9,269 nucleotides of DNA from a virus. Its lineage: Duplodnaviria; Heunggongvirae; Uroviricota; Caudoviricetes. Below are positions 1,947 through 2,481 of the stretch, piece by piece. Under the pieces are notes generated by a model, which saw only the letters and a list, made by a program, of their open reading frames with translations, was not told where the DNA came from and did no database searches. Made by a program: the position numbers and the translations under genes. Every line of letters begins with the position of its first letter. Within the stretch, counting starts at the first letter, position 1. The DNA lies in the IMG/VR virus record IMGVR_UViG_2718217789_000012; one strand, written 5' to 3'.

Positions 1947-2435
1947 TCAGTGTTTTAAGTCTGTTGGTGGCTTAGGGATGGGGAACCGATTTGAGTAGAC
2001 ACTAGCGGCATTGAGTTTTTTAACCTCTTTTTTCCCAATGCTGCCGATCTTGCGGTGGGTGAACTGGGCCAGCTTAAACGCGGCATCTAAAGCCAGTTTT
2101 GGATCTGTGTCCATGTTGTCAATCAGTATCCTGCCCATTGCTTTGATGGGGTCGGGTAGGCCGTTATCCATCATCTCAATGGTGTTAATTGATGCCCGTT
2201 CCGGTGTAACTTTTTCGGTAACTTTCTTTGTAACTTTTTTCGGTTTTGTAACCTGAAAAGTTACATCAGAAGTTACAGCCTTAAGATACTTTTTCACCTC
2301 AGGATCGTTGGATAGCTGCCAGCCTTTAACCCTTGCGGTCTTTTCGCTGTATCCCGCATGTATAGCGGCTTCCGTGGGATTTGCGCCCCTTGATAACGCA
2401 TCAGCAAACCGCTTTTTTTTGGTCGTTAATGCCAT
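1947..2435 (-). CDS. terS: Small terminase subunit-like protein (TerS or Rpp-like packaging-redirection protein), 162 aa from the MALTTKKK start
   Basis: The N-terminus KKKRFADALSRGANPTEAAIHAGYSEKTARVKGWQLSNDPEVKKYL matches the recalled small-terminase HTH pattern (AGYS-K-A...G..L..NP.V). GAGGT RBS about 8 nt upstream of the ATG at 2435. The ORF track's 207-aa version adds a low-complexity N-terminal extension across a C10 tract and was not preferred. Confidence 0.72.
   Translation of the reverse strand: MALTTKKKRFADALSRGANPTEAAIHAGYSEKTARVKGWQLSNDPEVKKYLKAVTSDVTFQVTKPKKVTKKVTEKVTPERASINTIEMMDNGLPDPIKAMGRILIDNMDTDPKLALDAAFKLAQFTHRKIGSIGKKEVKKLNAASVYSNRFPIPKPPTDLKH
2204..2276. repeat. Periodic GTAAC/GTTAC array inside the terS coding sequence
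   Basis: GTAAC at 2204-2208, 2218-2222, 2230-2234 and 2248-2252; inverted GTTAC at 2260-2264 and 2272-2276. Spacing is 12-18 bp. The same region encodes the lysine-rich peptide repeat KKVTKKVTEKVT. Confidence 0.5.
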
Positions 2436-2457
2436 GCAAAAACCTCGTTTTGAGGGG

Positions 2458-2481
2458 GTGTAACTTTTCGTGTAACTTTTT
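2458..2481. repeat. Tandem GTGTAACTTTT repeat (two copies, 12 bp apart) in the intergenic region upstream of terS
   Basis: GTGTAACTTTT at 2458-2468 and 2470-2480. Same core as the intragenic GTAAC array. Confidence 0.45.

Follow-up and report, generated by a model that had tools for sequence, protein, structure and literature searches.

A periodic GTAAC/GTTAC array in and upstream of the small-terminase gene of an Escherichia coli satellite island: a probable cosB-like recognition region beside a shared phage cut site

DNA that is recognised for packaging can lie within the small-terminase gene (terS) itself, as in gene 3 of P22 and in SPP1, with pacL and pacR located around gene 1. The mode in which the rings of small-terminase proteins (TerS) bind DNA is unsettled (PMC7672466, PMC9611059), and wrapping, threading and interdigitation models are in dispute (PMC7672466, PMC9611059, PMC11331095). 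Among phage satellites, those termed phage-inducible chromosomal islands, or PICIs, are recognised in SatelliteFinder by a core set of int, alpA, pri-rep, capsid-morphogenesis and terS genes; they are about 9.5 kb in size and are devoid of genes for the large terminase (TerL), portal and tail (PMC10085698). The protein Rpp, a small mimic of the DNA-binding domain of lambda Nu1, heterodimerises with TerS of the lambda type (PMC6739421). For the Stx1 (Shiga toxin) phage Lys8385Vzw, PhageTerm analysis of virion DNA revealed cos (cohesive-end) packaging with a 10-nt 3' cohesive end, CGCCCCCCCT (PMC7946995). Here, we describe the terS region of a 9,269-bp stretch of viral DNA (IMG/VR record IMGVR_UViG_2718217789_000012; the whole stretch is called the window below), which is present as an identical stretch, flanked by clpS and cspD, in several E. 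coli O157:H7 chromosomes. The window is a complete small island, i.e. a PICI-type satellite of 9.2 kb, in which five of the five core components were found. An array of GTAAC/GTTAC pentamers lies in and upstream of its terS gene and, judged from sequence comparisons, it is probably a satellite-specific, cosB-like recognition region for the island's own TerS, with the consensus AAAAGTTACAC and with part of its copies placed within the codons of a disordered linker.

Domain and family searches of the window identified no TerL, HNH, portal, protease or tail genes, and TerS is the sole recognisable packaging DNA-binding protein encoded by the island. The elements of the packaging region, in the order in which they follow each other along the gene strand, are given below (HTH, helix-turn-helix; aa, amino acids).

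2554-2563, minus strand: G10 tract, left arm of an imperfect inverted repeat (GGGGGG.GTGT.CC / GGACACCGCCCCCC) around the cos core; 7-12 G among isolates and phages.
2509-2518, minus strand: cosN-like 10-mer CGCCCCCCGT, flanked by GGACAC and CTCA.
2490-2508, minus strand: post-cut box CTCATTCGTAGAAAATTTT with an A-tract (CTCACGCAGAGAAAAAATT in phages), kept in each satellite and phage lineage compared (Burkholderia excluded).
2470-2480, minus strand: U1, the first upstream repeat, AAAAGTTACAC, in non-coding DNA and separated from the cosN-like 10-mer by about 33 bp.
2458-2468, minus strand: U2, the second upstream repeat, AAAAGTTACAC, also non-coding; it follows U1 by 12 bp and is just 5' of the ribosome-binding site (GAGG, 2443-2446).
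1947-2435, minus strand: terS, encoding the 162-aa small terminase (HTH at residues 5-56, disordered linker at 57-84, oligomerisation core at 96-126 and a C-terminal NRF..P.PP tail).
2268-2276, plus strand: internal inverted repeat, AGAAGTTAC on the plus strand, coding for A-V-T (GCT GTA ACT).
2256-2264, plus strand: internal inverted repeat, AAAAGTTAC on the plus strand, coding for D-V-T (GAT GTA ACT).
2244-2252, minus strand: degenerate direct copy CAGGTTACA, coding for Q-V-T.
2230-2238, minus strand: internal direct repeat AAAAGTTAC(A), coding for K-V-T.
2218-2226, minus strand: internal direct repeat GAAAGTTAC(C), coding for K-V-T; absent, together with its neighbour unit, from the 154-aa and 158-aa alleles.
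2206-2214, minus strand: internal direct repeat AAAAGTTAC(AC), coding for K-V-T.

Eight pentamers are located at 2206-2476, namely six within terS (2206, 2218, 2230, 2248, 2260 and 2272) and two (2460 and 2472) in the 131-bp intergenic region upstream of the terS ATG, exactly the numbers reported in the first-pass annotation of this DNA. GTAAC is found on the plus strand at 2206, 2218, 2230, 2248, 2460 and 2472, and on the minus strand at 2260-2264 and 2272-2276; along terS, two inverted copies are followed by one degenerate direct copy and then by three good direct ones. The start-to-start spacings are 12, 12, 18, 12 and 12 bp in terS and 12 bp upstream of it (five being exactly 12 bp), and thus the period of the array is 12 bp, i.e. 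four codons, and not the 10.5-bp helical turn that had been suggested. None of 2000 first-order Markov simulations reached eight sites in 280 bp with five 12-bp spacings (maximum of six sites and two spacings), and the clustering was never matched in 20000 runs of random placement of the same 23 sites (maximum of seven). The 9-mer AAAGTTACA has five copies in 33 kb of the surrounding chromosome, all of them in the array (expected 0.31). On the gene strand the repeated unit is longer than the pentamer, AAAAGTTACA(C), and its two perfect non-coding copies lie at 2470-2480 and 2458-2468, where GTGTAACTTTT is found. Each repeat contains an A4-6 tract, phased at approximately 12 bp.

The 162-aa protein matches Pfam Terminase_2 (PF03592; 1.4e-10) over its N-terminal HTH, phrog_641 (terminase small subunit; 1.5e-43) over residues 1-159 and, in searches against PDB profiles, the small terminase G1P of SF6 and its DNA-binding domain (3zqp/2cmp). 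With its HTH, helical core and C-terminal tail it is a small terminase of the Terminase_2/SF6 G1P-like type. AlphaFold2 predicted a confident four-helix domain for residues 5-56 (predicted local distance difference test score, pLDDT, of 80-89), pLDDT values below 50 for residues 57-84 and a helical core for residues 96-126. The internal repeats code for residues 53-78, i.e. the end of the last helix of the HTH domain and the disordered linker, in which they specify the tandem peptide AVTSDVTFQVTKPKKVTKKVTEKVTPE, the lysine-rich KKVT linker already noticed in the first-pass annotation. The same annotation had described the protein as TerS/Rpp-like. The first term is well founded (Terminase_2, and phrog_641 over residues 1-159), while a full-length Terminase_2 TerS is, by its domain content, not Rpp-like; moreover, no Rpp-like open reading frame (ORF) was recognised in the domain and family searches of the window proteins, and the island is not a PICI of the Rpp type. 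In GenBank, its closest phage relatives, with 46% identity over 96% of the protein, are TerS proteins from PPompW prophages and from Stx1a-, Stx2c- and Stx2a-converting prophages, found in O157 and in other Shiga toxin-producing E. coli (STEC). A comparison by segment with TerS of phage 2851 gave identities of 56% (HTH), 6% (linker), 69% (core) and 41% (tail).

In these Stx-type phages (gene order: HNH, terS, terL, protease-capsid fusion) the DNA upstream of terS contains GGGGGGGG...GGACACCGCCCCCC(G/C)TCTCACGCAGAGAAAAAATT, and the same sequence is found in the island between the preceding small gene and terS. The cosN-like 10-mer of the island is the same as that of phage 2851 and 1 base off the mapped 3' cohesive end of Lys8385Vzw, the GenBank record of which starts with CTCACGCAGAG and ends with GGACACCGCCCCCCCT, exactly at the reported cohesive end. 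By this homology, the island appears to carry the cut site of the HNH-associated Stx phage class, for which the ends were mapped in a related phage. Since it has their 10-nt cos overhang sequence, the island is cos-type and not pac-type; the pac-type system assumed earlier does not apply, the core being that of phages in which HNH adjoins terS and a 3' cohesive end was mapped, and not that of headful packaging. The array lies directly beside this cut site, on the terminase-gene side, with U1 located 33 bp from GGACAC-CGCCCCCCGT-CTCA..AGAAAA.

At the left edge of the cos core, the length of the G/C homopolymer (2554-2563, and its equivalent in L011-L085) ranges from 7 to 12 bases in islands and Stx phages that are otherwise nearly identical, and this could be real hypervariability or sequencing error. 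Together with GGACACCGCCCCCC the G tract forms the imperfect inverted repeat listed above, with a spacer of about 24 bp.

The cos core is shared between the island and the phages, and the repeats are not. Stx-type phages have five (AAAT)GTTAAC copies in the 120 bp from cos core to terS (expected 0.86 per locus). No GTTAC was found in their cos-terS region and no GTTAAC in the island. In Bordetella phage PHB09 (HNH-terS-terL, 31% identity) the same cos-like box is followed by three TGTTAAC-like copies 12-13 bp apart, and its linker has one GTTAAC, which encodes V-N. Three copies of AAAAGTTAAA, spaced by 11-13 bp, are present in Acinetobacter phage fLi-Aba03, and its linker contains three more, of which the first reads in the Val frame (K-V-K), another lies in a different frame and the last is inverted. 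In Salmonella phage FSL SP-016, TGTTTAC/GTAAACA occurs at the start codon, and the linker contains an inverted pair. The motif cores of these other lineages (GTTAAC, GTTAAA and TGTTTAC) occupy positions homologous to the GTTAC of the island, and the in-frame linker copies of the non-Stx lineages spell VN or KVK. When the cos-to-terS regions of six lineages were aligned, the first repeat was found at a conserved distance past the cut. Lactococcus phage 53802 has only the HTH domain in common with this family, and no clear repeat array was seen in it. A constant cos core, a repeat core that changes with the TerS type and linker peptides that match it form the pattern of co-evolving protein-binding sites.

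For closer relatives, terS homologues with identities from 98% down to 51% were gathered with their DNA (exact-protein look-ups, IMG/VR); a TerS-alignment scan of representative genomes gave no confirmed relative. The homologue loci comprise E. coli satellites with terS and a capsid homologue (L005 and L090), an E. coli locus with terS and no nearby TerL or capsid gene (L091), a Salmonella locus (L009) and a satellite-like contig (L010), an uncharacterised contig (L088), phage-type HNH-TerS-TerL-capsid-portal loci of Hafnia (L007 and L008) and a terS-terL contig (L089). The motif AAAAGTTACAC is present in non-coding DNA upstream of terS in all of them, mostly in one copy (two in the island and six in L005, an E. 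coli satellite with a TerS identity of 62%), and this includes the Hafnia prophage (HNH-TerS-TerL), the Salmonella locus and three further homologue loci. Every homologue with an identity of 55% or more has it both upstream and in the linker codons. All homologue loci have direct copies in these codons, and all except the L005/L091 lineage have the N-terminal inverted copies. The non-coding repeat pairs, too, are 11-13 bp apart, and in alignment the repeats of L005 coincide with those of Stx phages, with GTTAC in place of GTTAAC. Altogether, several copies of a motif specific for the TerS type are the rule, AAAAGTTACAC being found in all seven lineages with VT-type linkers and variants of it in four others. 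The first-pass annotation had named absence of the array from close homologues as an outcome that would speak against its proposal; the array is present in all homologues examined, and this outcome was not encountered.

Codon usage points in the same direction. In seven lineages the linker Val codons are GTT or GTA in 29/29 cases, vs 15/26 elsewhere in the same genes (Fisher p = 6e-5), and the Lys codon preceding the linker Val is AAA in 14/14 cases, vs 94/139 elsewhere. The retained N-terminal V-T dipeptides are encoded by GTA-ACT (the inverted motif) and the following ones by GTT-ACA/C (the direct motif), and the linkers of L005 and L091 end in one extra inverted GTA-ACA. This orientation pattern is not visible to the protein, yet it is conserved. 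Unconstrained synonymous sites are expected to have diverged at 55-65% amino-acid identity, and here they are fixed, which argues for a constraint at the DNA level despite the kinship of the lineages. Of the double constraint, on DNA and on protein, claimed in the first-pass annotation, the DNA part is thus borne out by the non-coding copies and the codon choice, and the protein part is not, because the linker is predicted to be disordered and the in-frame copies of other lineages spell their local DNA motif (VT, VN or KVK). The KKVT peptide is therefore mostly a by-product of the DNA motif and does not amount to a separate constraint on the protein. Between the alleles of 154, 158 and 162 aa, the differences are whole 12-bp (4-aa) units.

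Several features of the homologue loci were recorded in addition. Both L005 and L091 are placed next to a type I restriction-modification system. In L005, terS is preceded by an HNH-like gene, and a single GTTAAC occurs among the six upstream GTTAC copies; this mixed motif is possibly an intermediate between the GTTAC and GTTAAC types. In L090 (E. coli, GCA_016548415.1) a near-identical cos-terS-capsid module, with a 154-aa terS allele that is two repeat units shorter, is located beside an AAA_25 helicase-type replication gene and not a D5_N primase gene, which indicates modular exchange between satellites.

The model that we infer from the sequences, their conservation, the codon bias and the cos homology, together with the published mapping of virion ends in the related phage, is as follows. 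The island would be excised and would replicate from its own origin (GGTAGAGG iterons, 3350-3590). Its TerS would oligomerise via the core that is 69% identical to the Stx-type phage core, and its HTH domains would read the two repeats located 33-58 bp from the cut as well as the six that lie among the linker codons of terS, at a distance of 233-312 bp. Through the core and the conserved C-terminal NRF..P.PP tail, TerS would recruit TerL and the HNH nuclease of a putative Stx-type helper to the shared cosN-like CGCCCCCCGT (2509-2518). TerS of the helper would read AAATGTTAAC, a motif that the island does not have, and so each TerS would pick its own DNA with the cutting machinery in common. 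The island terS and an Stx-type phage terS were found in one IMG genome (L012 and L060), which fits a helper relation and is not proof of it. The 12-bp register is compatible with successive HTH domains of a ring touching successive sites, a statement that commits us to no particular geometry. Of the element-specific packaging signal for the island's own TerS, as proposed in the first-pass annotation, a lineage-specific DNA-level signal beside the cut site is what the comparative evidence favours, with the pac and Rpp components left aside.

Several observations weigh against this model. The recognition helices of the island and Stx-phage TerS proteins differ at only a few positions, so that a difference in specificity is plausible and unproven. 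The codon counts come from related lineages, which are not fully independent. Stx-type phages have zero motif copies inside terS, and therefore internal copies are not obligatory for this class. Furthermore, HK97, the only HNH-class cos phage with a mapped TerS site, has a single 15-bp site, 15-29 bp past the cut (PMC11331095), and the A-tract box that the island and the phages have in common, at about the position of the HK97 site, could be the true TerS site.

This last point leads to the best surviving of the other explanations, in which the repeats bind another factor or are architectural (phased bending A-tracts, a host nucleoid protein), with TerS specificity residing in the post-cut A-tract box as in HK97. 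The HK97 site needs its A-tract (PMC11331095), the satellite and phage lineages examined have kept the box CTCA..AGAAAA(A), and the A4-6 tract of each repeat with its phase of about 12 bp would suit an architectural role. However, HK97 TerS is without the HTH domain that is present in the TerS family of the island (PMC11331095), and TerS is the only DNA-binding protein in the island that co-varies with the repeats. The core of the motif varies with the TerS lineage (GTTAC, GTTAAC, GTTAAA and TGTTTAC), and the flanking A-tracts and the cos core stay constant, as would be expected if a base-specific reader co-evolved with its sites. We consider this explanation unlikely.

It is also improbable, and rather strongly so, that the repeats are operators or RNA elements for terS expression, i.e. 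sites of TerS autoregulation at U1/U2 or mRNA hairpins formed by the inverted copies. U1 and U2 do lie 10-35 nt 5' of the Shine-Dalgarno sequence, and the HTH-coding part of terS is bracketed by a 25-nt inverted repeat (2256-2280 with 2456-2480, 84% complementary); the mRNA segment folds somewhat better than shuffled sequences (z = -2.06), and in the fold a local hairpin spans the internal copies. However, a search of 1700-3700 gave no sigma-70-like promoter, and the long-range pairing of upstream with internal copies is absent from the predicted minimum-energy fold. L005 and L091 have lost the two N-terminal inverted copies and kept the direct ones, with six copies upstream, and the Stx-phage equivalents are located in a Q-antiterminated late operon, 80-200 bp from terS. 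Both roles, expression control and packaging recognition, could coexist. The 25-nt inverted repeat itself joins the two upstream with the two inverted internal copies around 175 bp that code for the HTH, and it could allow DNA looping by TerS or long-range mRNA pairing.

A repeat of the protein level only, in which slippage during replication has lengthened a Lys-rich KKVT linker, the DNA pentamers have arisen as its by-product and the upstream copies are due to chance, would explain why the 154-, 158- and 162-aa alleles differ by whole 4-aa units, and GTWAC in the first reading frame always codes for V-T. It is very hard to reconcile with the extended 11-mer in non-coding DNA of every lineage (up to six copies), with the fixed synonymous positions and with an orientation pattern (GTA-ACT, then GTT-ACA) to which the protein is blind; the linker is predicted to be disordered, and in other lineages the in-frame copies spell different peptides that match their own non-coding motif. 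We therefore see only a very small probability in it. Finally, iterons of the replication origin, suggested by short, regularly spaced repeats in a replicating element, were rejected as practically excluded, since a separate origin of typical form, with about 12 GGTAGAGG in both orientations and an AT-rich stretch (3350-3590), adjoins the 3' side of the primase gene, and the GTTAC array travels with terS even in the Hafnia prophage, far from replication genes.

Within the cosB-like reading of the array, it is tentatively suggested that the internal copies are working TerS sites, and that TerS binds the DNA coding for its own flexible linker. If this is true, one 12-bp slippage event (as in the 154-, 158- and 162-aa alleles) would alter the number of binding sites and the length of the linker together, and a one-base change of the core (GTTAAC to GTTAC), accompanied by a few HTH changes, would suffice to separate the packaging of satellite and helper at a shared cut. 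The locus would also be a minimal natural system for DNA reading by ring-shaped HTH small terminases, in which up to four direct and two inverted copies in a 12-bp register bear on wrapping versus other models.

The remaining part of the island was also analysed. Its main genes are all located on the minus strand, and those outside the region described above are the following.

8046-9269, minus strand: integrase (int).
6960-7184, minus strand: AlpA-family regulator (alpA).
3595-5349, minus strand: D5_N/DUF5906 primase (pri-rep).
1774-1935, minus strand: 53-aa ORF after terS, with profile-level likeness to the TerS core helix pair.
861-1784, minus strand: 307-aa capsid homologue, in packaging-module context.

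Of the helper-type protease-capsid fusion, only the capsid half has its counterpart in the 307-aa protein (phrog_617, positions 386-610 of 626), which is a candidate Ccm-like redirector of capsid size. The 53-aa ORF that follows terS has an acidic tail and a profile match to positions 89-125 of phrog_641. In tblastn searches it was closer to the TerS core of Bordetella, Salmonella and Acinetobacter phages than to the TerS of the island, and BLASTP revealed no match with the latter, the similarity existing at profile level only. Homologues of this ORF follow terS in satellites and in phage-type loci (L089), and in the Hafnia prophage L007 it is interrupted by a stop codon. Its position after terS is conserved within the TerS lineage of the island, in satellites and phage-type loci alike, and the idea of a satellite-specific decoy of the helper TerS is weakened by its occurrence in the latter.

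Directly 5' of the cos core, a gene (2567-2728, minus strand) encodes a predicted coiled-coil protein of 53 aa that ends with ...EVEGLISLLGEQ, and it is kept in the island, the Salmonella locus (L009) and L088; the cos site is thus situated inside an operon, between the coiled-coil gene and terS. The region 3350-3590, directly 3' of the primase gene, contains about 12 GGTAGAGG(G) iterons in both orientations around an AT-rich stretch (approximately 3530-3560) and is likely to be the replication origin, with the layout typical of a PICI ori. A 257-aa protein (7276-8049, minus strand) adjoins the integrase, at the usual site of accessory or defence cargo in PICIs, and gave no Pfam, PHROG or PADLOC match; PADLOC gave no match for the unannotated small ORFs of the window either.

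The cos-terS module was found at an identity of at least 95% in 220 of 5426 complete E. coli genomes (approximately 4%), mostly STEC, and this frequency makes it relevant to DNA mobilisation by phages of the Stx type and to designing cosmids that can be packaged or delivery vectors based on PICIs. The array makes packaging specificity, discrimination between satellite and helper, and the cost of a DNA signal overlapping a coding sequence testable.

When compared with known systems, the island resembles P22 and SPP1 in that recognition DNA overlaps the small-terminase coding sequence. These phages are headful, and P22 has a single 22-bp site, whereas in the island a periodic array dictates a repetitive linker peptide; no description of such an array, with different motifs across a phage family, was found in the searchable literature. 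The redirection by TerS-S of Staphylococcus aureus pathogenicity islands (SaPIs) is similar in that the island has a helper-homologous TerS, no TerL and its own recognition sequence in or beside terS. Unlike in SaPI1 and SaPIbov1 (headful, pac), the cut site is a cos common to the helper class and only the TerS-recognition repeats differ, and no Ppi homologue was recognised in the island. As with SaPIbov5 and other cos SaPIs and with capsid-forming PICIs (cf-PICIs), the helper class needs HNH, TerS and TerL, and a Ccm-like capsid homologue is present. SaPIbov5, however, has the helper cos without terS, whereas the island has its own terS. The cf-PICIs encode a full HNH-terS-terL, portal and protease set, as opposed to only terS, the 53-aa ORF and the capsid homologue here, and with TerL, HNH, portal, protease and head-tail connectors absent from the window the island is not one of them. 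The E. coli PICI EcCICFT073, of the Rpp type (PMC6739421), is alike in combining a helper-like cosN with a different cosB, by which packaging specificity is switched to the island. Our island differs from it in having a complete Terminase_2 TerS and in apparently targeting HNH-cos phages.

The TerS family of the island offers a repeated, lineage-specific motif at fixed positions from a mapped cut, in phages and in a satellite that share the cut site but not the motif. From lambda it differs in its TerS, which is of the Terminase_2, SF6 G1P-like type and not Nu1, and in its cos, which has a 10-nt 3' overhang and belongs to the HNH-associated class; no site for IHF was identified in the island, and the three copies of lambda cosB are opposed to eight in a 12-bp register, six of which are inside terS. 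The arrangement is nevertheless that of lambda cosB (R3, R2 and R1, bound by the winged HTH of gpNu1, the lambda TerS): several copies of a short motif, in mixed orientation, are placed on the terminase-gene side of the nicking site, where the N-terminal HTH of TerS reads them (in the island, putatively) and then positions TerL at cosN.

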